DNA of 64,000 nt from Chloroflexota bacterium (lineage in GTDB: Bacteria > Chloroflexota > Limnocylindria > P2-11E): assembly GCA_038040345.1 (NCBI GenBank), contig JBBPIQ010000002.1:36243-100242 (forward strand), in the 5' to 3' direction. The position numbers and the translations under genes are program-made. The notes below the pieces were generated by a model that saw nothing but the letters and a program-made list of their open reading frames with translations, did not search any database and was not told the origin of the DNA. This document shows, piece after piece, positions 41,341 through 53,654 of the stretch (the stretch's first letter is position 1; every line of letters starts with the position of its first letter).

Positions 41341-41406
41341 ATGTCTGTGAGTTCTAGTTCGGAGTGTCCCGGGCGGGTAATCATCGGTGTTTCCCGTGTC
41401 GCACAG

Positions 41407-41524
41407 GTGTTAGGGGAGTCAGGTGAGCTTCCGAGGAATCAGGTGAGGTTCCCGAAAATCGCAAAACCGCGTTTCGATCAATAGCGATGCGGGTCCGTGC
41501 TGGGGAGGGTGGATTCGAACCACC
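41407..41524 (+). repeat. 118-bp direct repeat of 49903-50020 (integrase-proximal flank plus 27 bp of the tRNA-Gln 3' end); relic att junction
   Basis: Constant offset of 8496 bp with 7 mismatches by manual alignment; includes TGCTGGGGAGGGTGGATTCGAACCACC at 41498-41524. Confidence 0.92.
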
Positions 41525-41692
41525 TTTGTCGGGGCAAGCTGTATTCGGAGATCCGTGTTCATCTTTCGCGCAGGCGAGCAATTCGTCCGACGCGACTCGC
41601 GCGTCAATTGCCGTACGCCGCGATGCGATAACGTCCGCCTCGTGGCCGGCGGCACGGCCGAGGCCCGATAGACGAAGGAGTGTGGCGCTGAC

Positions 41693-42853: not shown

Positions 42854-43147
42854 GATCCCTCCCGGCGAAGCGACGAGTTACCGTGGCGTTCATGAGACGA
42901 CGCTGAAGTCATTGTGAGTTCACTTGGATCACCGCGGGTCGCGAGCTCGCTAGCGTCTCCGGAATTCTGAAACGCAGGTTGGTGGGCGAGCCTGACTACG
43001 AATCAGGTGCTCTCGGAGTCAGGTGACTTTCGATGCCGCGCGACGCCGACATCCACGGCAAAGACGCGACTCGCGGCGATTACCTGATTTCCGATCAGGT
43101 GCCTTGTCGCTTCAGTGAGCTCAGAGAAACGCGAAATCATTGGGATC

Positions 43148-43196
43148 TGCTGGGGAGGGTGGATTCGAACCACCGATTACCTGATCCAGAGTCAGG
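43148..43196 (+). repeat. att site: 49-bp exact copy of the tRNA-Gln 3' half (49994-50042)
   Basis: TGCTGGGGAGGGTGGATTCGAACCACCGATTACCTGATCCAGAGTCAGG occurs at both positions; identity ends just past the anticodon stem. Confidence 0.95.
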
Positions 43197-43402
43197 TAAC
43201 GAAAATCTCGCGGTCAGTCACGAGTTCTGGCGCAAATTCAAGAAATGCGGGGAGCGGGGCCGCTTCCTGGCGTAGAGAATCAGGTGAGCTTCCCGAAGAG
43301 AAGTAATCCGATGGTTCGTGCGCGATCATCTCGACCTGCGTCAAAGGCACTCGTCTAAATAGGCGTCAAACAGGTCAGGGCTTCAAGTGCTGGACCTTGC
43401 CG

Positions 43403-44800
43403 CTAGGGGAGTGGAGTCCCGATGCTTGTCCAATGGACACCGCCGTCGACAGTCCGCTGGGTGAACCCGCGCACGGTCGCGTATCCGGTCGATGCGCTCG
43501 CGAAGATCATCAGTGGAGCGACGCCCGCAGCCTGTGAGTAATCGGATGCGAACGGATGCCAGCTGCTACCGCTATCGGTGGTTTCCAGCGAACTGTCCGC
43601 GAGCGCTATCTGAAGCCAACGCGATGCGGTGACGAAGGCGAACGCACCCGCGCGCGTGACCTCCACGACAAAGTTCCAGGACTTTCCTGCATCTACCGAA
43701 CGGAAGACGTAGAGGTGCGCGTGTTCGCCGATCTGGCCGTACGCCTGCACCAAGAGCGTCGAACCGATAGCGTGGACCGCTCCGGCTTGGAGCGTCACCC
43801 CGGCGCCCACAGTCGTGAAGCCGGGTGGATCTGGAAGCGGTTGCGAGCCCGTCCACGTTCTGCCGCCATCTGTCGTGCGGTAGATGACCGGCGCGTGATT
43901 GGCGTCCCGGCCCGAAATGTAGCCGTGCGTTCGGTCGGCGAAGACGAGCCCGGCTTTGCATTGATCGTCGAGTCCGCTCGATGTGATCTGCTGCCAGGAA
44001 ACACCTGCGTCGACCGTGTGGAATACGAGGACGTTCTGGAAGGTGCACTGCGTCGCCGCGGGACCGTTCAACGTCAGCCATCCTTCGCGATCGTCGACGA
44101 ACGCTATCTCCGGATTCACGAGCGGCCGCGCTGGAAGTGGTTGCTCCGTCCAGTGGTCGCCGCGATCGACAGAGCGGAACAGGTGCGTTCCCGCGACGAT
44201 CGCCCAGAGGGCGCTCGTCGACGTCGGCGCGAGCTGCACAAATGTCGGGAGCGCGATGGGCGTCGGTGAGGCGCCAGGTGTATTGCTCGTGGGGGCGGTA
44301 ACACCATCGCGACATCCGCTGTCCGCTAGCGGAACCGTGATCAGGCGACCGTCGAGGAGAGTCGTTTCGACGCGGTATGAGGCGGCCTCGCTCTCGAACC
44401 TGCGCTCGAGCGCCGCGTCGATTGCCACCCACGTCGAGCTGTGCAGAGCGCTCGCTCGGACACGGTTCACGCAGGTGTCCGGGCCGAAGATTCCGGAGCC
44501 CGCGATCGGGAGCGCAACCACGAGGCCCCCGTCCGCGCTAAGGATCCGAAAACCCATCGCGGTTCCGTCATAAAAGAGCTCGAGAGCGAATGGCTGCGGG
44601 GCTCCGGCGAGTCCATCGACCGCCCATTCGACGCGCGATGGAGTCTGATCGGGAGTGGGCTTAGCGGGCGGGGAGGGGAGAGGCTCGGTGGGCGTGGGCG
44701 CCGTCGGGCTCTGGGCGGGCGCGGCAGCCGGAGGAACACAGCCGGCAAGAGTCGTCGCCAGACCGAATAGGGCGGTGATCACGATGGGCTGCAGCCGCAT
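43403..44800 (-). CDS. Lipoprotein with BNR/Asp-box beta-propeller (YCF48/sialidase-like)
   Basis: Lipobox LAGC, Pro-rich linker and six S/T-x-D-x-G-x-x-W repeats. Confidence 0.8.
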   Translation of the reverse strand: MRLQPIVITALFGLATTLAGCVPPAAAPAQSPTAPTPTEPLPSPPAKPTPDQTPSRVEWAVDGLAGAPQPFALELFYDGTAMGFRILSADGGLVVALPIAGSGIFGPDTCVNRVRASALHSSTWVAIDAALERRFESEAASYRVETTLLDGRLITVPLADSGCRDGVTAPTSNTPGASPTPIALPTFVQLAPTSTSALWAIVAGTHLFRSVDRGDHWTEQPLPARPLVNPEIAFVDDREGWLTLNGPAATQCTFQNVLVFHTVDAGVSWQQITSSGLDDQCKAGLVFADRTHGYISGRDANHAPVIYRTTDGGRTWTGSQPLPDPPGFTTVGAGVTLQAGAVHAIGSTLLVQAYGQIGEHAHLYVFRSVDAGKSWNFVVEVTRAGAFAFVTASRWLQIALADSSLETTDSGSSWHPFASDYSQAAGVAPLMIFASASTGYATVRGFTQRTVDGGVHWTSIGTPLP

Positions 44801-45084
44801 CAGGACGAGAATCCCTCGGAAGGCCGTCGTCCGTCGTCCGAGTTGCGCACGTTAACTCGTACGGCCTCCCGCAGCGGACGGCGCCGCGGTCCCGCGCCAC
44901 CGAATAGCGCCTGTGGACAGCCAGGCGGAGAAGATCGTGGAGAGGAGGGGTTCACGCTCAACAGGAAGGGCCACGATTAGTGCCTGAAACGAACGAATGG
45001 CAAGATCAGACGAGCGGAGGCGGAGAACCACATGAACTACTGGAACCGTCGCGAACCACCGCGACCTGAGACGGCATAGACGCC

Positions 45085-46293
45085 ATGGCAGAACCCGGCT
45101 TCGAAACCAGGCGACTGCGAAGCGCCGACGAGCCTCTGGCGAACTTCCTCGAGGCTTTTCTGCGCCGGACGAGCATCGGTGATAAGACTCGCTACGACTA
45201 CGGGCGGCTGCTCCATGAGTTCGATGACTTCACCGATCATCCCAGCCTGCGAGACGGGCTCACCGACGCCCTCGCGACACAGTGGATTGAAACGCTCAAA
45301 GATCGCGGAGCCTTTGCCGCTCGTAATGGCGCGATGTACCTCAAGTCGTTTGCTACCTGGGCCGCTCGAAGGGGCTACTTAGCAACCGCGACAGGCGTCG
45401 GCGTCCTAGATCACTTCAAAGCGCCGCCGATCACGAAGCGGGTGCGTCGCGCGTACACCGAGCGGGAGCTCATTGCGATCTGGAAGGCCTTAGCGACGAG
45501 TCCCAAGGGTGAACGCAATCGCGCGATCGCGCTGCTGAGAGTCCTTCTCGCGACCGGCATACGACGAGACGCCGCTCGGACCTTACCGCGCCAAGACGTC
45601 GAGATCGATCCCACCCGAAACCGGGGGTCGATCACGGTCCGCGTCAAGAGCGCGCGAGGCGTCACCGATCGAAGAATCCCGCTCGACGTCGAAACCGCTG
45701 CGGCTCTTCGGGCCTATCTTGCCGACGACAAACGGCCAACGTGGGTAGGGCCTGCCCTCGAACCGCTCTTCCTGAGCAAAGATGGACAGCGTTTCACGAC
45801 GAATGGTTTTGGCAGTTGGATGGAACGGCTAGGCGAAGAGATCGAGAGCGCGACTGGAATTCAGTGGACTGCAGAAGCCATGCGGTACACGTCCAAAGAA
45901 GAGTCGAAAGCCCTTATCCACGATGCCGATCTGCGGGAGAAGTGCGGGGCCATGCTCGATACGAACAAGAGGCACGATCAAACCATCTGGGCGGCGTGCA
46001 AGGTCTTGGAACTCCGCGTGCGCAAGATCGTCGGTGCTCCTCGCGGAAAGTCGGGCGTGCCACTCATGAGGTTCGCCTTCGCGGATGAGCCGATTCGGCT
46101 TCGTCTGTCGGACGACGACAAGCTGCAACGCGCAGCAGCGGAGATGTTCACCGGACTAATGTCGTACTACCGGAACCCCGCCACTCATGAAGTGTTCGCG
46201 GACCTCAGCCAGCGCGGCGTGAGAGAAATCGTCGGTTGGGTCGATCATTTGCTGACGCTGGTCGGACAAGCCGATCGTGCGTCAACTGGTTAA
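45085..46293 (+). CDS. Degenerate tyrosine recombinase fused to a TIGR02391/Ymh (HEPN-like) domain
   Basis: Colinear with 48921-49895 (LKSFATW, YT, G-R, PLFL, F...GF...M-RLG). HxxR is replaced by EAMR and the segment with the catalytic Tyr is absent. The C-terminus has ACKVLELRVR...GVPLMRFAF...YRNPATH. Confidence 0.78.
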   Translation: MAEPGFETRRLRSADEPLANFLEAFLRRTSIGDKTRYDYGRLLHEFDDFTDHPSLRDGLTDALATQWIETLKDRGAFAARNGAMYLKSFATWAARRGYLATATGVGVLDHFKAPPITKRVRRAYTERELIAIWKALATSPKGERNRAIALLRVLLATGIRRDAARTLPRQDVEIDPTRNRGSITVRVKSARGVTDRRIPLDVETAAALRAYLADDKRPTWVGPALEPLFLSKDGQRFTTNGFGSWMERLGEEIESATGIQWTAEAMRYTSKEESKALIHDADLREKCGAMLDTNKRHDQTIWAACKVLELRVRKIVGAPRGKSGVPLMRFAFADEPIRLRLSDDDKLQRAAAEMFTGLMSYYRNPATHEVFADLSQRGVREIVGWVDHLLTLVGQADRASTG

Positions 46294-46463
46294 CGCCTCA
46301 GCCCGACGCCGCTCCAAAGGCGACAGCAGACTGACCGGGTGAGAAGGCAGCTCGATGACGCCCGCAGGTGGCCCGCTCGATCGGCGCTTCGGAGTTACGG
46401 TCGCGCGCTAAGCCGATCCTGGTTCATCGCGGCGGAACGCGATACCTGTTACGAATCAGGTCG

Positions 46464-46754
46464 TTACAGAATTCGGAACTGCTTGCGCCCAGGAGGAAAT
46501 AGGACCGTGTAATCCTCGCCCCCGACTTCGCGGTAGGCCGCTGCAAAGTCAGCGGCAACGAGCGGCTTGAGACGGTCAAACGCACGAAGCGGGTCATCGG
46601 TCAAAACGAAGATGTTCATCTCACCGCCTCCGAGGTCGTGGCCGTCGACGACACCGGCGTCCCCAAGCAAGCTTTCGGCCTGTTCCTCAAGAGCGACGAG
46701 GTCATCGAAGTCGCTTGAGGCGGCGGGCGTCTGGAGCACTAACTGGTATTTCAT
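46464..46754 (-). CDS. Conserved small acidic protein (96 aa)
   Basis: MKYQLVLQ...VDGHDLGGGEMNIFVLTDDP...AAYR...VLFPPG. Confidence 0.75.
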   Translation of the reverse strand: MKYQLVLQTPAASSDFDDLVALEEQAESLLGDAGVVDGHDLGGGEMNIFVLTDDPLRAFDRLKPLVAADFAAAYREVGGEDYTVLFPPGRKQFRIL

Positions 46755-46936
46755 TGACTGGACTGTTGCACGGGCGACAAGGCTCGAGTGCGAACCCTCG
46801 GATGTGAGTACCGACGGTTGACCTGATTGCAGATCAGGAGACGACACAGAGTCTCGGATACCTGGCGGATCGTGACCGAGCTCGTAATCGTTAGGGTTCG
46901 GCAACTCAGACGCGCTAAAGACGAACCGCGACGAGA

Positions 46937-48370
46937 ATGGATCGCATGAACCCGAGGCGCGCTCTGAAGCGGGCGGGTTTGCGTGTCGCCTGCGAACCCA
47001 GACGCCCCGAGAACCCTGGCTCCGGCGCTCAACGGGCGCGGCGGGCCGTCCTGACGCTGACCCTGACCGGGCTGCTTTTCGGTGCGTGCGAAGCCGCGCC
47101 CCTGCCTTCCCCATCGCCTGCCGCCCCGTTGGCTCGCGCCCAGGTCGAGCGGCTGTGGATTGATGACCCGAGTTACTTCGTACTACAGCCGGATGAGATG
47201 GTCGTTGACGGAGACCGCGAAATCGTCGTCGGAGTCGACTTCTCGCAGACACCTCGTCACGACGAGATCGAAGGCCGGCTTCGCGCCGGCGCGCCAAGCG
47301 GAAGCGTCATCGAGTGGCTGACCGACCGGCGCGTAACAATGCGCGTTCCTGCTGGTGGGCCATTCGACATCGATCTCAGCTCGGCCGAGCCGGCTCCTCA
47401 ATCAACAGTTCGGCTGTCGACCTCGCTAAGGTTCCACATCGACAGGCCGACCTTCGAGGTCGCGCTCTACCGTCCGAAGGACGTTCTCGCGGGATCGCTC
47501 GCACCAGTGCGGTCGTGGATCGTGCACCTGGCTCTTCAGCACATTTTGTCGTTCGCCGCCGACGGCCATCGCGCACTCGTCTACCACGGACTAACGCCCC
47601 GACGCACGGACTTCTCCATCCTCGACCTCGACAGCGGACAGAAGAGCACGCTCGCCGAACCGTTCATGCAGATGGCGAAGAACGGAACCTCATTAATGGA
47701 CTGGCTCCCAGACGGTCGTCTTCTCGGCGTCGCGCATGCCACCTCGGTTACCGGCGACACCGACGGGCAGCACCCCCTGGAGCTCCCGGGTCTCGTCGGT
47801 CAAGGCGCCGTGCTGTCGCCTTCGGGCCATCTCGTCGCGCTCTGGAGTTACGCGGAGGGCACCGCGGCGATCCTCGATCTCGCGAGCGGGAACCTCCGGC
47901 TCTTGCCAGGTACCTTCCCGCGCTGCACCGTCGGAGGCATCGTGGCGCTTTCCTGGATCGACGACGACCAGTTAGTTATCAGCGACTGCACCGCCGATCT
48001 CGGAGGCACGCCGCGGACGCGTGTGCTAAGCGCGCGCACCGGCGCAACTATCCAGACCCGCTTGGGCGACCAACTCGTGGCGATCCTCGCCGGGGGCGTT
48101 GAGTGGCGCACTCGCGCCGAGCCGGCTCAGACGATGAGCTCGCCACAGGTGGCCGCGTGGCTCGCCGACCCAACGGGGAAGGTCCTCGCAACGCTCGTCA
48201 CAGGGGTGCGCTATCTACCGGCCCCGGACGGGACTGCGCTCGCGTATGCGAATGGCGACGGGCAACACTCAGTGATCATTGACCCAGCGACCGGCCGCCA
48301 GCGCGAGGTCGCGGGCGAAGCGATGACATGGACGAAGCAGGGCGAACTCGTGGTAATCCGCCGACCGTGA
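46937..48370 (+). CDS. Lipoprotein with a TolB/WD40-like beta-propeller
   Basis: TM helix plus lipobox FGAC; repeats FAADG, WLPDG, LSPSG and PAPDG; start uncertain. Confidence 0.7.
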   Translation: MDRMNPRRALKRAGLRVACEPRRPENPGSGAQRARRAVLTLTLTGLLFGACEAAPLPSPSPAAPLARAQVERLWIDDPSYFVLQPDEMVVDGDREIVVGVDFSQTPRHDEIEGRLRAGAPSGSVIEWLTDRRVTMRVPAGGPFDIDLSSAEPAPQSTVRLSTSLRFHIDRPTFEVALYRPKDVLAGSLAPVRSWIVHLALQHILSFAADGHRALVYHGLTPRRTDFSILDLDSGQKSTLAEPFMQMAKNGTSLMDWLPDGRLLGVAHATSVTGDTDGQHPLELPGLVGQGAVLSPSGHLVALWSYAEGTAAILDLASGNLRLLPGTFPRCTVGGIVALSWIDDDQLVISDCTADLGGTPRTRVLSARTGATIQTRLGDQLVAILAGGVEWRTRAEPAQTMSSPQVAAWLADPTGKVLATLVTGVRYLPAPDGTALAYANGDGQHSVIIDPATGRQREVAGEAMTWTKQGELVVIRRP

Positions 48371-48524
48371 CTGAGGTCGTGAGAGGCTTTATGCGATGCG
48401 CGCGTTGCTCCTTCTTGTGCTCGGGCGAGGGTTTCGGCTGCAGACCTGATTCGTAGTCAGGTGCAAAGACAACGTACTTCTCCCGCCGGCAACGTGGCCA
48501 AACGCACGTCCTACTCGGCGACCG

Positions 48525-48570
48525 AGTGTTCTCCGAAGAGAACACTTGGAGAACACGCCATGAGAACACT
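48525..48570. promoter_or_regulatory. Operator-like GAGAACAC repeat cluster upstream of the integrase
   Basis: Inverted repeat AGTGTTCTC-CGAA-GAGAACACT plus further GAGAACAC copies at 48549 and 48562. Confidence 0.5.
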
Positions 48571-48920
48571 TTGAGTGGAGTAGTCACGGTCGGACTTCAG
48601 TTCTTCTCGAAGGATTACGCCATTTCACTGTGGGGCGAAGACAACGGCTACATAGCGCGATCGACACATGTTCCCACGCGATATTCGTCAACTCGTCGCA
48701 AGGTCCGGTCGCAGATGGTCGTGATGTCTCGTTTCGCGCCGCTTCCGTTCCCAACAATCCGTAGATTTCCCGACGGCCTGCTGCCCGCCGGGAAGGAACA
48801 ACATGACCGGCGAACGAACCTTAACAACACAACAGCGACCATTGCGGTGGGCGGAGATGCGTGACGAGCACACGCCCCTTCTAGACTGCGAACGGCCCCG
48901 CTCCCCGCAAGGGAGAGGAA

Positions 48921-49895
48921 ATGTCTCGCACCTTTACAGCTTCATGGGAATCTCTCGTGCGCGGTAAGGACAGCAATCTCGGCGACGTCATCGAAAGCTT
49001 CCTTCTCGCAAAGGAGGCAGAGGGCCGCTCCAAGCGGACCCTTCAGGACTACCAGACCTATCTCCGCGAGTTCGACCGCGTCACTGGCGGCCCGACCCTC
49101 GCGCGGCTCACTCCCGAAGTGGTCACGAGATATATCGCCGAACGACGACGCTCGTCACCGGCCGCCGCTCGCTACGCCGCCGCGATCCTCAAGAGCTTCG
49201 CGACATGGCTCGCGGAAATGAAGTACCTCGCGACGCCGATTGGCGGATCCGTTCTCGCGACCGTCAAAGTGCCGCGCGTCGACCGCCCCCGCAACCCGTA
49301 CACCGATCAAGAAGTTCGCACGATGATTCGTGTGCTCGGCGCGAGCAGCCAGCGCACCCGCGCTCGCGATTCAGCCGCGATCCTCACGTTACTCGGCAGC
49401 GGGCTCCGACTGAACGAGCTACGCGAGCTAGGACTTCCGAACGTGCACATCGCACGGCCGATCGAGGAGAGCTACGTCCTCGTGGCCGCCGAGACGAGCA
49501 AGAGCCGGAGCACGCGAAAAGTCAGACTCGATCCGATGGCCGCCGAGGCCATTCACAAATACATGAAGGACTGGCGACCCGACCGCGCACACGATGGACC
49601 GCTGTTTCTCACCGAAGAGGGCAAGCCATTCAGCCTCTCCGGTTTCAAGAACTACATGGCTCGACTCGGCGATCGCTTCGAAGAAGCGGGCATCGCGAAC
49701 TGGATGGCCCATCGCTCGCGTCACTACTGGGCGACGAGCGCGCACCGCGCCGGCATGAGCGTGTTCGACATCGCCGTCGAAGGCGGCTGGCGCGATCTCA
49801 AGATGGTTCAGCGATACACCAAGAGCCGCCCGTTCGAGGAGCTGCAGCGTCTGCCGACGCCGCTCTCGTTCGTGCTCCAAAAACGGGCTTCCTAA
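48921..49895 (+). CDS. Tyrosine recombinase/integrase (XerC/D-like, no arm-binding domain)
   Basis: N-terminal SAM-like core-binding domain; catalytic R (GLRLNE), K (SKS), HRSR, GW and Y (VQRYT); SD GGGAGAGG. Confidence 0.95.
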   Translation: MSRTFTASWESLVRGKDSNLGDVIESFLLAKEAEGRSKRTLQDYQTYLREFDRVTGGPTLARLTPEVVTRYIAERRRSSPAAARYAAAILKSFATWLAEMKYLATPIGGSVLATVKVPRVDRPRNPYTDQEVRTMIRVLGASSQRTRARDSAAILTLLGSGLRLNELRELGLPNVHIARPIEESYVLVAAETSKSRSTRKVRLDPMAAEAIHKYMKDWRPDRAHDGPLFLTEEGKPFSLSGFKNYMARLGDRFEEAGIANWMAHRSRHYWATSAHRAGMSVFDIAVEGGWRDLKMVQRYTKSRPFEELQRLPTPLSFVLQKRAS

Positions 49896-49910
49896 GAATC
49901 AAGTGTCAGG

Positions 49911-49950
49911 GGAGTCAGGTGAGCTTCCCAGGAATCAGGTGAGGTTCCCG
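49911..49950 (+). repeat. Tandem 20-bp direct repeats GGARTCAGGTGAGSTTCCCR (further copies at 41415, 41435, 43276 and a degenerate one at 43015)
   Basis: GGAGTCAGGTGAGCTTCCCA followed by GGAATCAGGTGAGGTTCCCG. Confidence 0.88.
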
Positions 49951-49995
49951 AAAATGGCAAAACCGCGTTTCGATCAATAGCGACGTGGGTTCTTG

Positions 49996-50067
49996 CTGGG
50001 GAGGGTGGATTCGAACCACCGATTACCTGATCCAGAGTCAGGAGCCTTACCGCTTGGCCACTCCCCA
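49996..50067 (-). tRNA. tRNA-Gln(CTG)
   Basis: TGGGGAGTGGCCAAGCGGTAAGGCTCCTGACTCTGGATCAGGTAATCGGTGGTTCGAATCCACCCTCCCCAG folds as a cloverleaf with a U1-A72 pair and CTG anticodon; CCA is not encoded. Confidence 0.96.
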
Positions 50068-50081
50068 ATGGAGCACGTGAA

Positions 50082-50492
50082 TTATCCCATCCGAGGCCTC
50101 GCGCGGAGCGACGAGACCAATGTGACGAGCAGCAGTGGCTCGATCACGAGCGCGAAGAGGATCCCGCCGCCGAGGCTGATGATCCCGGTGAGCTCCATGA
50201 GCAGGGCGAGAGTGATGAGCCACACACGCGGCCGGGAGTTGAGCCATACACCGATGACGGCGAGTAAAGGCGCGAGCGACCACATGACTATCCACAGCAG
50301 CGGGGCGGGAAAGAGATCATTGCCCTGGATCTCGATGAGGCTCGAGCTGCGGCAGACCTGCGGCCCCGGACTCTGACCAGATGCGACCGCCGTGGTCGTG
50401 CATCCGTAGAAGAACGGTCCGAACAGGACGCCCCAGCCGAGGATGACGCCGGCCGCGAGAGCGAGCAATGACGCGATCCGCGCGATCCGCAT
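50082..50492 (-). CDS. Small membrane protein
   Basis: About 4 hydrophobic helices and a Cys pair in the loop. Confidence 0.6.
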   Translation of the reverse strand: MRIARIASLLALAAGVILGWGVLFGPFFYGCTTTAVASGQSPGPQVCRSSSLIEIQGNDLFPAPLLWIVMWSLAPLLAVIGVWLNSRPRVWLITLALLMELTGIISLGGGILFALVIEPLLLVTLVSSLRARPRMG

Positions 50493-51692: not shown

Positions 51693-53654
51693 ATGAAGGC
51701 TTTGCTGCGACCCCTGTTCGTGGGTGGACTCAGCATCGCCATTGCGGCGACGACCCTTGTCGGATCGTCGTCAGTGGCTCTCGGCGCGACCAGGCCGTCG
51801 ATCACGAGCTGGTCGGTAAGCGGGCCTGTCTACGAAGGCGACAGACCGTTCGCAAATGCGACATTCACCGATGTCGACCTGCTCGACCAGCACACGGTCG
51901 ACGTCTCCTGGGGCGACAACACCTATGACACTTACACGCTGCCCCTCGGAGACCGGAGCTTCTCTGTGCAGAAGACCGTCCCGTACCTGGACGAAACCAC
52001 GACACCCTGGACTGTTCAGATAACGGTCAACGACCCGATCTTCTCGACATCGCGATTCACGACCGTCAACGTCTTGAACGCGGCGCCGTCGATCACGTCG
52101 TTCGGCCTTTCGTCGAGCGACATGGAGGCGGGCCAGGCGGTCACCGCGTCCGGCGTCTTCAAGGACGCTGGCGCCACCGACACCCACACCGTCACCTTTG
52201 ACTGGGGCGACGGCTCGCCGACCGCAACGAAGAATCTCGCGGCCGGCGTCTACTCCTTCAGCAGCGACGCATACACGTACGCAGGCGTTGGCAACTTCAC
52301 CGTCACCGCGACCGTGACGGACAACGCCGGCGCATTCGCGACCGCGACCTCGAGCGTCAGCGTCCACCAACCGAACCAGGCGCCGAGCGTCGCATCGTTC
52401 GACGTCACCGCCGGTAACGAGGGCGGCAGCTCGACCCTCGCGCTCACGTTCGCCGACGTCGACGCTTCCGACACGCACACCGTCTCGGTGGCGTGGGGCG
52501 ACGGCCTCACGAGCGATTCGGGCGTCCTCGCATCGGACGTCACTACGTTCAACACCTCGCACGTCTACGCCGACACCGGCAGCTTCTCGGTCGTGCTCAC
52601 GCTTGCGGACAACGCGGGCCACTCGGTCACCGCGAACGCGTCGGTCTCGCCGACGAACGTTGCGCCCGTTGTTGGCAGCCTGTCCGTCTCGCCGAGCCCG
52701 GTCGTCGATCACCAGACGCTGACCGTAAGCGGCACGTTCACCGACCCGGGCACGGCCGACACCTTCACGCTCACTGTCGACTGGGGCGATCTGACGTCCT
52801 GGACAGACTCGCTCGCCGCGGGGACACGCTCGTTCTCCGCGACGCACGCCTACAACGCCACAGGCCCGGTCACCATCACGGCGACCGTTACCGACCGCGA
52901 TAGCGGTCGGTCCAGCTCGAGCGTGGATCTCGTCGTGGGCTCGAGCAACCACGCGCCCGCCAACCTCTCGCTGTCGGCGAGCGCCGACGGAGCGAACGTG
53001 GCTCTCGACGCGAGCTTCACCGATGCTGACGCGCTCGACACGCACACGGTCTCGATGACCTGGGGCGACGGCGCTTCGGCCCAACAGGATCTCGCTGCGG
53101 GCACGACCACCTTCACAGCGGCGCACGTCTACGCGGCGAGCGGCACGTACACCGTGAGCGTCACCGTGAGCGATGCCGCGACATCGACGAGCGCGACCAC
53201 GCAGGTCGTCGTCACCGTCCCCGCCGTCACTGCTGCCGATGTCCTGGACGACATGTCCGGGCTGGTGCTGAGCTTCAACCTCGATCGGAACACGGAGCGC
53301 TGGCTCCTAAAGAAGATCGACGACACCACGGCTTCGCTCGCGTATGGCAACGGCCAGGTTTGCTCGAGCACTGGCACCCTCAGTCACCTGATGGCATTCG
53401 CACAGCGCGCCCTCACCGAGAGCGAGTACGCGGCGCTGAGCGGGCTCTCGACCAACCTTCAGGCAGCGGCTGGGTGCAACGGAGCACTAAGCCCAAAAGT
53501 TCTAAAGGCGTCAACCGTGACGCCGAATACCACGGTAACGACGGTGACCACGCAGACCGCGATGCCGGCTCCGGCTCCGGCACCGAAAGAGGACACGACG
53601 CCGAAGAACACGAAGGCGGACACCAAGGCCACGGGAGGTCGTAACTCCCGCTAA
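51693..53654 (+). CDS. Secreted PKD/Ig-like repeat surface protein
   Basis: Signal peptide, five repeats of F(T/K/A)D...HTV...WGD, NxAP linkers and SD GGAGGT. Confidence 0.85.
   Translation: MKALLRPLFVGGLSIAIAATTLVGSSSVALGATRPSITSWSVSGPVYEGDRPFANATFTDVDLLDQHTVDVSWGDNTYDTYTLPLGDRSFSVQKTVPYLDETTTPWTVQITVNDPIFSTSRFTTVNVLNAAPSITSFGLSSSDMEAGQAVTASGVFKDAGATDTHTVTFDWGDGSPTATKNLAAGVYSFSSDAYTYAGVGNFTVTATVTDNAGAFATATSSVSVHQPNQAPSVASFDVTAGNEGGSSTLALTFADVDASDTHTVSVAWGDGLTSDSGVLASDVTTFNTSHVYADTGSFSVVLTLADNAGHSVTANASVSPTNVAPVVGSLSVSPSPVVDHQTLTVSGTFTDPGTADTFTLTVDWGDLTSWTDSLAAGTRSFSATHAYNATGPVTITATVTDRDSGRSSSSVDLVVGSSNHAPANLSLSASADGANVALDASFTDADALDTHTVSMTWGDGASAQQDLAAGTTTFTAAHVYAASGTYTVSVTVSDAATSTSATTQVVVTVPAVTAADVLDDMSGLVLSFNLDRNTERWLLKKIDDTTASLAYGNGQVCSSTGTLSHLMAFAQRALTESEYAALSGLSTNLQAAAGCNGALSPKVLKASTVTPNTTVTTVTTQTAMPAPAPAPKEDTTPKNTKADTKATGGRNSR

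Follow-up and report, generated by a model that had tools for sequence, protein, structure and literature searches.

In phage lambda, the cis element sib lies across attP from int and is present in int transcripts only in the non-integrated state, as integration removes it. It works from the mRNA 3′ end, where a local hairpin is cleaved by RNase III and Int is lowered. In circles of IS911 and IS30, a promoter is assembled across the junction, and only the circle expresses the recombinase strongly. In IS10 fold-back inhibition, an end sequence pairs over a short range with the ribosome site on transcripts that come from outside, and recombinase expression from such read-through is low. The 3′ UTR of the Staphylococcus aureus icaR mRNA reportedly covers the Shine-Dalgarno (SD) sequence and represses, the pairing being constitutive. 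This mRNA's own 3′ UTR is described as pairing with its 5′ UTR and controlling both translation and decay (PMC3868564). Integrase expression in ICEKp1, ICEclc and ICEEc1 is described as dependent on whether the element ends are joined; int reads away from att, and the far end provides a promoter and an extra upstream stretch of 5′ UTR (PMC13023037). The rationale given there is that higher int in the excised, non-replicating form favours re-integration, and the same account suggests, in silico only, that a 15-bp far-end sequence might pair with a stem-loop in the int 5′ UTR (PMC13023037).

The locus described here, from a 64-kb stretch of Chloroflexota DNA (the window), resembles lambda sib in having a cis element on the far side of attP that would act at the 3′ end and is cut away by integration. 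Unlike sib, the element here lacks a local hairpin; its sequence complements the 5′ end of its own mRNA, and the effect predicted is positive. Sib has no sequence or family relation to the present islands. As in the three ICEs, integrase expression would depend on whether the ends of the element are joined, but the ICE hosts are Proteobacteria and their integrases belong to other families. Here the integrase reads towards att, the far end gives a 3′ UTR, the pairing would bring the two mRNA ends together, and it is backed by covariation in many elements. Unlike in icaR, the match ends before the SD, and the 3′ partner exists only after a DNA rearrangement. As in IS911, IS30 and IS10, a mobile element would read its topology from the sequences at both of its ends, but those enzymes are transposases, not tyrosine integrases at tRNA genes.

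The island is 6.8 kb long and sits in a tRNA-Gln gene, bounded by 49-bp repeats (family D4) at 43148-43196 and 49994-50042 that are 100% identical. Both correspond to the 3′ portion of the tRNA-Gln(CTG) gene that serves as integration target (49995-50067, minus strand; ARAGORN; Rfam tRNA, 65.5 bits), and the proximal repeat (attR) lies within the intact gene. On the side of the distal repeat (attL), there is a weak tRNA-fragment match on the minus strand (43157-43221), and a pattern match, CCTGA-N7-TCAGG, marks an anticodon-arm site at 43180-43196 within attL. An arm-type repeat, GAATCAGGTGAGCTTCCCGAA (43277..43297, + strand), resembles a core half-site and bounds the conserved distal arm on its inner side, as homology to the related elements L028 and L040 stops there. 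It belongs to family D5, with four copies, at 41436, 43277, 49912 and 49932. The integrase-proximal att arm (49896..49993, + strand) contains two or three arm-type repeats of families D5 and D6 (49912-49952) and is 95-96% identical in L027, L033 and L035. Decayed neighbour elements are present in the window. The integrase gene (48921..49895, + strand) encodes a two-domain, Xer-like tyrosine recombinase of 324 aa that reads towards the att site, with a Pfam PF00589 domain (E 1.5e-20) and a SAM-like N-terminal domain. Its nearest solved chain is the XerC-like 4a8e_A, aligned over residues 21-302.

A first-pass annotation had noted that 43246-43262 (TGCGGGGAGCGGGGCCG) and 48893-48909 (CGGCCCCGCTCCCCGCA) are exact reverse complements of each other, which is borne out. 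The 17-mer is present exactly twice in the 2,997,568-base assembly, both copies within the window. The distal block (43246..43262, + strand) sits between the core and the arm-type repeat, 49 nt inward of the att repeat. Upon excision, it would follow the integrase stop by 196 nt, on the same strand, in agreement with the annotated figure of about 200 nt. The leader block (48893..48909, + strand) is the 5′-most part of the predicted integrase mRNA and holds CTCCC, the 5′ arm of a hairpin (CTCCC-CGCAA-GGGAG, 48901..48915, + strand) that pairs the first five bases of the SD, GGGAGAGG (48911..48918, + strand). This hairpin, proposed earlier to sequester the SD, is found in the predicted minimum-energy fold of the leader; hairpin and SD precede the integrase ATG at 48921. 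In L028 and L029, the stem is preserved and the loop differs. By itself, the 17-nt match is unremarkable within the window and is weak evidence: the 64 kb contain five distinct exact inverted repeats of at least 17 nt, where a mean of about 1.0 is expected (40 Markov simulations per order; maximum 3-4 repeats). Only the comparison with related islands places the match far beyond chance.

A -10-like hexamer, TAGACT (48882..48887, + strand), marks the 5′ limit of the conserved integrase module. In three close relatives (L026, L027 and L042; integrase 94-96% identical), the block is identical at 17/17 positions, the SD region from -11 to -1 at 11/11, and the hexamer at 6/6, 6/6 and 5/6, respectively. 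The 5-nt spacer before the block varies (2-4/5 identical), and positions -140 to -41 are only 23-28% identical. Other leaders, read by eye, have a TAnnnT hexamer 5-8 nt before the block. A consensus promoter scan of the window did not find a full sigma-70-like site, and no conservation of a -35 region was found in the same three relatives. Judging from the hexamer, the integrase mRNA probably starts at about 48893-48895. RNA-library contigs of relatives, drawn from two studies, have their first bases at 48904 and 48905, and a DNA contig continues past there; these starts are compatible with the predicted one and are a weak hint, not proof. With an mRNA start at 48904, most of the block would be absent from the RNA.

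The fossil 5′ end of a second integrase module, of a different class, lies at 48763..48870 (+ strand). It comprises TAGATT, a block (GGCCTGCTGCCCGCCG, 48775-48790), an SD-like GGGAAGGA and an ATG at 48803, which opens a 54-aa frame that extends across the start of the present integrase. Within the upstream frame, the C-terminal 30-37 residues match the corresponding frame at the class-2 leaders of L049b, L066b and L068. In the window, with up to three mismatches allowed, no complement of GGCCTGCTGCCCGCCG was found beyond chance.

The related elements are small mobile islands of soil Chloroflexota, and the count is limited to those with both ends examinable. These are the window, L028, L044 (G076), L049b and L049c (G042), L066b (G051, unpublished), L060 (G037), L068 (G038) and G070. 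The nine islands measure 3.2-30.9 kb and target tRNA-Gln, tRNA-Glu or tRNA-Val; integrase identity is 34-80% among the eight relatives, and the integrase is the sole protein family common to all. Each island carries the complement of its own leader, exact over 14-18 nt and 43-99 nt inside the distal att repeat, so that the proposed pairing, checked for covariation in homologues, survives in 9/9 islands with compensated changes. Once excised, the distal block would lie 112-221 nt after the integrase stop, and its distances to the core form two groups, 43-50 and 91-99 nt. Leader blocks begin 5-8 nt past the conserved -10-like hexamer and end 0-1 nt before the SD in 7/10 elements (5-7 nt in L044 and G070; L046 is ambiguous). 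Identity drops to random on either side of the block.

In a leader-by-arm matrix, diagonal matches reach 14-18 nt and off-diagonal matches 5-9, except inside two sequence classes. Control windows from the same locus reach 12 nt in 0 of 134-1002 cases per island; the exception, L049c (3/508), is due to tandem integrase copies. Among ten elements, 14 of the 18 aligned block columns vary, and each base is Watson-Crick matched in its own arm. Close pairs differ by single compensated changes (A/T in the window versus G/C in L028; C/G in L049c versus T/A in L060), and the window's distal block is also kept in L038-L040. The elements form about five sequence classes, and the nine cases are therefore not independent. 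A single G039 contig carries the integrase and a 46-nt tRNA-Tyr core followed after 44 nt by the complement, all contiguous; this is the order predicted for attP. A terminator-like hairpin with a U-run between integrase stop and block is absent from 9/9 modelled junctions. Among reads and contigs, no excised circle, attP-spanning transcript or link between integrase end and distal arm was found; contigs cannot reveal rare forms.

With slightly less than even confidence, we take the two 17-mers to be halves of an RNA duplex between 5′ UTR and 3′ UTR, in cis only when the island is excised and probably raising integrase output. The integrase mRNA would have its first base at 48893 or a few bases from it, 5-8 nt past the -10-like hexamer, so that the block would make up the entire 5′ UTR before the SD. 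In the integrated state, transcripts running beyond the stop codon would run into tRNA-Gln in the antisense direction. Those from the excised circle would cross attP and copy the distal block 196 nt after the stop, and we infer that this RNA would pair in vivo with the extreme 5′ end of its own mRNA. The outcome would be more integrase from the circle, which is unable to replicate and has to re-integrate. Two routes may lead to it. In this island's class, the anti-SD arm would be drawn out of the SD hairpin; more generally, the duplex would bury both mRNA ends and shield them from end-dependent RNases.

In a cofold of the modelled attP-spanning window transcript, a check proposed in the first-pass annotation, both 17-mers pair with a mean probability of 0.955. 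The predicted duplex amounts to -35 to -47 kcal/mol in 10/10 elements, about -44 kcal/mol in the window. The integrated-state read-through model, which lacks the distal block, gives an unpaired probability of 0.134 for the SD and leaves the leader block about half unpaired (0.55). The annotation's excision-state anti-anti-SD switch holds for pairing, geometry and conservation, but the release of the SD is weak: its mean unpaired probability, 0.13-0.14 in the leader fold, rises to 0.25, the opening being small because the SD re-pairs with codons 2-3. Occlusion of the ribosome site exceeds that of shuffled blocks (at most 5/100 shuffles) in 3/10 elements (the window, L028 and G070) and is average in L049b, L066b, L068 and L046 (52-65 of 100 shuffles). 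Anti-anti-SD switching is thus not the conserved function of the pairing; SD release is predicted for this island's class only, and with a modest opening. The duplexes are perfect and free of internal G-U pairs in 10/10 elements, which is more than RNA pairing of such strength needs and counts against the favoured reading. At the first flanking positions, counted by eye, mismatches of G-U type (2) are not commoner than those of A-C type (4).

The same cis duplex could also have the opposite sign and, like sib retroregulation in lambda, lower integrase when the island is excised or incoming, which we consider unlikely. The perfect 14-18-bp duplex would do so as a target of RNase III-type cleavage or by blocking 30S loading beside the SD. 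All structural evidence for the duplex applies equally to this reading, and perfect G-U-free helices suit a double-strand-specific nuclease, although a helix of 14-18 bp is short for RNase III. In 7/10 elements, the block is no specific anti-SD; the duplex adjoins the SD by 0-1 nt in most, and in L060 weaker pairing runs on into the SD. However, the exact match halts before the SD, not over it, in 10/10 elements. Repression is also hard to justify in a non-replicating circle that needs integrase to survive, the integrase being the sole shared gene.

To a similarly low degree of probability, the block may instead be a DNA-level feature, namely a protein-binding site with one copy in the P arm of attP and another over positions +1 to +16 of the integrase promoter. 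A protein that helps to build the recombination complex would then also repress (or activate) integrase transcription. Regulation of integrase genes from att arms is described for KplE1 intS (PMC2951348), and an operator between -10 element and SD is in a classic position. The distal block lies within the conserved att arm, between core and arm-type repeat, and its core distances fall into the two groups given above. Covariation cannot separate an RNA duplex from two co-evolving DNA sites, which would covary alike. Against a DNA site, there is no candidate protein: the integrase, sole shared family of the nine islands, has only Xer-like core-binding and catalytic domains, and this end-to-end two-domain fit leaves no element-encoded DNA-binding partner available. 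A host factor would not explain blocks that differ between islands of one host family. The block also lacks dyad symmetry and is unlike the core half-sites and arm repeats (TCAGG-type here; GGAAG-type in the tRNA-Glu class), and perfect identity over 14-18 bp goes beyond what a protein site needs.

More doubtful still is a trans-acting antisense RNA, whereby the distal arm would be transcribed separately or from outside and act on the integrase leader in either state. Its source might be integrase read-through from a neighbouring island in a tandem array. Such arrays are common: the G042 contig has four att repeats and three integrase genes, one of which directly precedes the next island's arm, and the window has its decayed neighbours. 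Yet in G042 the arm next after integrase b matches the integrase c leader and not that of b, so read-through from a neighbour would not be self-regulation. Alternatively, a displaced host tRNA promoter might serve where cores are tRNA 5′ parts, as in G039 and G087; these cores have the same sense as the integrase, so that in the integrated state the host promoter would read into the distal arm. In the tRNA-Gln, tRNA-Glu and tRNA-Val islands, however, arbitrary host or remnant DNA lies left of attL, and in the window no promoter-like site is found in the conserved 50-100 nt that separate core and block.

Chance, or a passively inherited inverted duplication within an integration module that is contiguous in the circle, is very improbable and close to refuted by the leader-by-arm matrix and the block covariation: 17-nt inverted repeats are not rare in the window, and leader and arm, within about 1.3 kb of the circle, would be co-inherited, but five sequence classes each hold perfect complementarity amid random flanks, passive descent would erode the match rather than compensate it, and the two integrase-less remnant arms of G042 carry one mismatch each.

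On the cis-duplex reading with raised integrase output, the leader and the far-end site would share one RNA only after excision, and the island may in this way sense its own state.

The window is part of contig C2 of a 3.0-Mb assembly in 15 contigs, whose closest named relatives are metagenome-derived genomes of Chloroflexota / Candidatus Limnocylindria. Within it, a 6.8-kb island lies between two 49-bp repeats with 100% identity. One is the 3' 49 bp of an intact tRNA-Gln(CTG) gene (attR, 49994-50042; gene at 49995-50067, minus strand), the integration target at the integrase end, and the other is the distal repeat (attL, 43148-43196). The 324-aa tyrosine integrase gene (48921-49895) adjoins the tRNA gene and reads towards it. 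Its product matches PF00589 (E 1.5e-20; score 74.1 bits, cut-off 27.1) and carries a SAM-like N-terminal core-binding domain (PF02899, residues 32-98). In one pairwise alignment with the XerC-like structure 4a8e_A, the motif pairs GLRLNEL/GLRVSEL, HRSRH/HQLRH, and RYTK/IYTK place the predicted catalytic Arg, H-x-x-R-H box, and Tyr nucleophile in the window integrase. Because this alignment to a 292-aa protein spans residues 21-302, the integrase is, judged by its sequence, an ordinary two-domain recombinase that lacks an arm-binding domain. The cargo includes a BNR/sortilin-like gene on the minus strand (43403-44800) and a gene for 477 aa with no Pfam match (46937-48370). Between them, 45085-46293 encodes a Hypoth_Ymh domain fused to an integrase-like domain that shares 33% identity with the island integrase over 261 residues.

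The locus also carries traces of other recombination sites. The motif CCTGA-N7-TCAGG, expected 0.07 times in the whole window, has six sites within 42991-50042. Two form the anticodon arm within attL (43180-43196) and attR (50026-50042), and the remaining ones (42991-43007, 43083-43099, 46822-46838, and 48445-48461) look like extra core-type recombinase sites, two of them within the island. The longest perfect inverted repeat of the window (18 nt, 42991-43008 versus 48444-48461) joins two such sites that share their 7-nt spacer and face opposite ways. One of them lies some 150 nt outside attL and the other within the island; the pair could be an inversion substrate or remnants of other att sites. 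Left of attL, 41404-41546 and 42996-43112 hold two decayed integrase-proximal arms that include part of the tRNA core (121 nt at 93% identity to 49900-50020; 36-nt stretches at 75%), which are remnants of earlier tandem islands at the same tRNA. This paralogous arm also occurs as a separate contig in two DNA runs. Right of the tRNA and outside the island, a unit of about 280-290 nt is repeated four times in tandem at 51858-53081 (60-77% identity); every copy shares a conserved core (...CACAC.GTC...TGGGGCGAC...), and the repeat is probably coding.

The start of the predicted integrase mRNA is complementary to the far end of the island. The leader block (48893-48909) has its exact reverse complement in the distal block (43246-43262), and a genome-wide repeat is ruled out, as the 17-mer has only these two exact copies in the assembly. 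The first-pass annotation was accurate on the geometry: the leader copy lies at -28 to -12 before the ATG and holds the 5' arm of a hairpin (CTCCC-CGCAA-GGGAG), with the Shine-Dalgarno sequence (SD) GGGAGAGG beginning in the 3' arm, and recombination between the 49-bp repeats would put the distal copy on the same strand, starting 196 nt past the integrase stop. Alone, the 17-nt match is weak evidence because the window has five distinct exact inverted repeats of at least 17 nt against a Markov expectation of about 1.0 (maximum 3-4, 40 simulations each). A segment invertible between the two 17-mers was ruled out, as the blocks lack the CCTGA-N7-TCAGG core motif; four close relatives keeping a -10-like hexamer before the block in the same orientation also speak against it. 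A repeat of the promoter on the minus strand at the distal end was ruled out in the elements inspected by eye, in which no -10-like hexamer precedes the reverse-oriented distal block. Among viral contigs, a 14-nt distal-block pattern gave more than 119 unrelated GC-rich matches, and 0 of 80 of these carried the tRNA-Gln core or arm repeat. An Rfam scan of 42900-50200 (E up to 1) returned the tRNA, a tRNA fragment at attL, and one sub-threshold match on the tRNA's opposite strand, and no other known RNA family.

Integrase homologues were sought in one genome per species across the order and class, where 14 of 94 and 18 of 401 genomes matched, all from the window's own family. At E 1e-40 or better, the window integrase is found in 13 of 91 family genomes and in none of the 21 same-genus genomes (60-92% complete), so that its presence varies among close relatives. 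Further homologues came from GTDB contigs and metagenome contigs (17 loci), and up to 20 kb alongside was retrieved. Both ends were available for nine islands (L, integrase loci of relatives; G, their genomes; G:C, genome and contig): the window's, L028, L044 (G076), L049b and L049c (G042), L066b (G051, unpublished), L060 (G037), L068 (G038), and G070. The distal end was not reached for L026 and L027 (no att repeat in the 8 kb upstream), nor, where contigs end or the gene is a pseudogene, for L029, L042, L034, G090, G089, G059:C38, G054, G060, G038:C23, G037:C6, and G080. The window island and the eight others have partial tRNA-gene direct repeats at both ends and an intact tRNA at the integrase end. 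They measure 3.2-30.9 kb, lie in tRNA-Gln, -Glu, or -Val, and the eight relatives encode integrases 34-80% identical to the window's.

The complementarity is conserved throughout this set. All nine islands contain an exact 14-18-nt reverse complement of their own leader 43-99 nt inside the distal att repeat, and after excision it would lie 112-221 nt past the integrase stop. When every leader is compared with every arm, matches are 14-18 nt on the diagonal and 5-9 nt off it, except within two sequence classes. Control windows from the same locus reach 12 nt in 0 of 134-1002 cases per island, except for 3 of 508 in L049c, owing to tandem integrase copies. The blocks form about five classes: CGGCCCCGCTCCCCGC(A/G), GGCCTGCTGCCC(G/T)CC, GGTCGGTC(C/T)GGCGCG, GCCTGTCCGTCCGT, and CGGCCTGCCCGCCG. 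Fourteen of 18 aligned block columns vary, with every base matched in its own arm; single compensated changes separate the close pairs (window and L028; L049c and L060), and identity is random beyond both block edges. A variant leader type, that of L029, departs from the block at three positions. Since this covariation spans integrases down to 34% identity, a functional constraint is hard to doubt. In ten of ten elements the exact match stops before the SD, which follows the block end by 0-1 nt in seven and by 5-7 nt in L044 and G070, L046 having no clear value. G059:C2 (L009/L045) encodes an integrase 68% identical to the window's in which the first 16 residues and the usual leader are absent. 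Its frame seems to begin at a GTG without block or hairpin, and no recognisable leader and no match of at least 12 nt was found within 19 kb; it is possibly an exception or a rebuilt 5' end.

Other arrangements occur among the relatives. At L049 (G042:C102:21301-41300), a tandem array at tRNA-Glu contains three integrase genes and, besides the tRNA, four att repeats. Its integrases belong to two block classes, and every complete island carries a distal block that fits its own leader; in two remnant arms that lack an integrase, the block has one mismatch. The arms of this array carry GGGAAGCGGCC-type repeats similar to the tRNA-Glu anticodon-stem half-site. In a second architecture (L017/L046 on G039:C86, L070 on G039:C10, and L062 on G087:C60), the 5' part of a tRNA (tRNA-Tyr, or a tRNA with a CAU anticodon) serves as the att core and has the same sense as the integrase. 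A single G039 contig carries the integrase, a small frame rich in Cys, and a 46-nt core that is identical to the beginning of a tRNA-Tyr gene located on another contig; the complement follows 44 nt past this core. The layout represents either the attP order of an excised circle or a tandem array. In G087, a 12-nt complement lies about 200 nt past the stop, behind what looks by eye like a tRNA 5' fragment, although no tool called it. When an element of this second kind is integrated, the tRNA would depend on transcription leaving the island, and the host's own tRNA promoter, now displaced, would read into the distal arm.

The conserved integration module starts at a -10-like hexamer, as is evident from a close set whose integrase or its start is 94-96% identical (window, L026, L027, and L042). 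Here the DNA from -140 to -41 is unrelated (23-28% identity), the hexamer TAGACT at -39 to -34 is kept at 5-6 of 6 positions, and the 5-nt spacer between hexamer and block is variable (2-4 of 5), while no position differs in the 17-nt block (17/17) or in the SD region (11/11). In more distant leaders, read by eye, the block follows a TAnnnT hexamer by 5-8 nt. Another integrase module, of a different block class, has left its 5' end as a fossil at 48763-48967, immediately before the present integrase promoter (TAGATT, GGCCTGCTGCCCGCCG, GGGAAGGA, and ATG at 48803). Its 54-aa frame crosses the present leader, hairpin, and start codon; if the fossil promoter is still active, translation through the hairpin could open the SD, in the window island only. 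An apparent shared frame upstream of int is this fossil integrase leader and not a separate conserved gene.

Public sequencing was available as contigs of relatives from four runs at low depth, and these, from which rare forms are dropped, contain no end joint, attP junction, or empty site; absence from such data carries no weight. In the two RNA runs there is no RNA cover at 48302-48783 or beyond 49901. The 5'-most integrase RNA contigs, which come from close relatives in two studies, start at 48904 in one library (334 nt, 20 differences) and at 48905 in the other (128 nt, 4 differences); neither place has a recorded loose end, and a DNA contig from another run continues across. As a weak hint, these starts fit transcription beginning about 10 nt upstream, and also a start inside the block.

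Folding predictions support the pairing more than the release of the SD. The first-pass annotation proposed that, only in the excised circle, the distal block would act as an anti-anti-SD and open the hairpin. Whether folded alone or within the integrated read-through, the leader is predicted to keep its SD closed, with a mean unpaired probability of 0.13-0.14. The circle transcript, modelled by joining 48893-50042 to 43197-43310, shows the proposed pairing of the blocks at a mean probability of 0.955. SD opening is also predicted, but the unpaired probability rises only to 0.25 because the SD re-pairs with codons 2-3. With the block sequestered, opening the ribosome site is predicted to cost 1.8-7.0 kcal/mol less in 10 of 10 elements, and same-composition shuffled blocks perform equally in most. 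Only in the window (5/100), L028 (5/100), and G070 (3/100) does the block exceed its shuffles; L060 (11/100) and L044 (19/100) are marginal, and L049c, L049b, L066b, L068, and L046 are average. An anti-anti-SD switch is thus plausible in the window island's class but is not the conserved function of the pairing. What is conserved is the pairing of the mRNA's extreme 5' end, up to the SD, with a 3' segment. The existence of 5'-end-dependent RNases gives a basis for expecting end pairing to shield the mRNA, and 5'-3' pairing would protect both mRNA ends. A terminator-like hairpin with a U-run between stop and block occurs at none of nine modelled junctions, a weak argument in GC-rich genomes.

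Our leading, tentative interpretation is an excision-dependent 5'-3' RNA duplex that raises integrase output. The leader and distal blocks would reach one transcript only through excision, so that the mRNA would sense the topology of its own DNA via a duplex between its untranslated regions. The integrase (with its shadow frames) is the sole protein family common to all nine islands, and no excisionase or other DNA-binding gene common to them was found. An RNA duplex is favored by this sole shared family with no spare DNA-binding domain, by a block unlike the core half-sites and arm repeats, by block differences within one host family, and by the span of the block, which would run from the putative +1 to the SD. 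It is unlikely, though conceivable, that the same duplex acts negatively on the integrase. We give a similarly low likelihood to a DNA site bound by protein: two co-evolving DNA sites would give covariation too, and a host factor is argued against because block sequences differ between islands within one host family. With all blocks perfect and flanking mismatches few, wobble pairs do not discriminate RNA from DNA. A trans-acting RNA is less probable still. It is very improbable that nascent, promoter-tethered leader RNA pairs, besides RNA, with P-arm DNA of attP or attL as the integrase's RNA accessory factor. Such a factor would, on the same slim likelihood, serve an Xer-like integrase without arm-binding domain or directionality factor; if real, it would determine how recombination is arranged or in which direction it runs, which would make it the equivalent of RNA-guided recombination among tyrosine recombinases. 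That the blocks have no function is hardly credible in view of their covariation.

Mobile islands need integrase low when integrated and high when excised, and the known solutions are junction-assembled promoters, sib-type 3' hairpins, and directionality factors. In lambda, integration cuts the 3' element sib off from int. The islands resemble this in that the proposed regulatory site lies beyond the att crossover from int in nine of nine. However, sib is a local RNase III hairpin that destabilises int mRNA, and the modelled distal block pairs with the 5' leader and not locally, so the islands are retroregulation-like at most and no members of the sib type. The icaR mRNA reportedly has a constitutive 5'-3' UTR pairing that extends over the SD and represses translation. 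In the islands the two ends are complementary and predicted to pair, on what would be a single RNA; unlike in icaR, the exact match ends before the SD in all ten elements. The logic also resembles that of ICEKp1, ICEclc, and ICEEc1, for which state-dependent int promoter switching is described, together with a possible pairing, proposed from in silico analysis alone, between a 15-bp far-end sequence and a stem-loop of the int 5' UTR (PMC13023037). In contrast to the ICE Pcirc/P3'end arrangement, the window int points towards att, so that the far end comes to lie downstream of int in the circle. In the ICE type, a far-end promoter reads over attP into int, whereas here a conserved -10-like hexamer precedes the leader. 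Compared with these ICEs, the far end of these islands supplies the 3' UTR, and its partner is the mRNA's own 5' end.

A limited full-text literature search found no report in which an integrase leader is complementary to the far att arm, and an mRNA sensing its own DNA topology through a 5'-3' duplex would be, within that search, without described precedent. Excision-dependent pairing of leader and far end looks like a further form of state-dependent integrase control. It looks like a very compact solution, with about 16 far-end bases complementary to the start of the integrase mRNA, used by elements whose sole shared gene is the integrase. The signature of a leader complement just past the att core could serve to locate both island ends in fragmented metagenome assemblies. 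If the interpretation is true, these islands would offer a simple, portable design for state-dependent expression and would be a clear example from nature of an mRNA that reads a rearrangement of its DNA by pairing its 5' and 3' ends.
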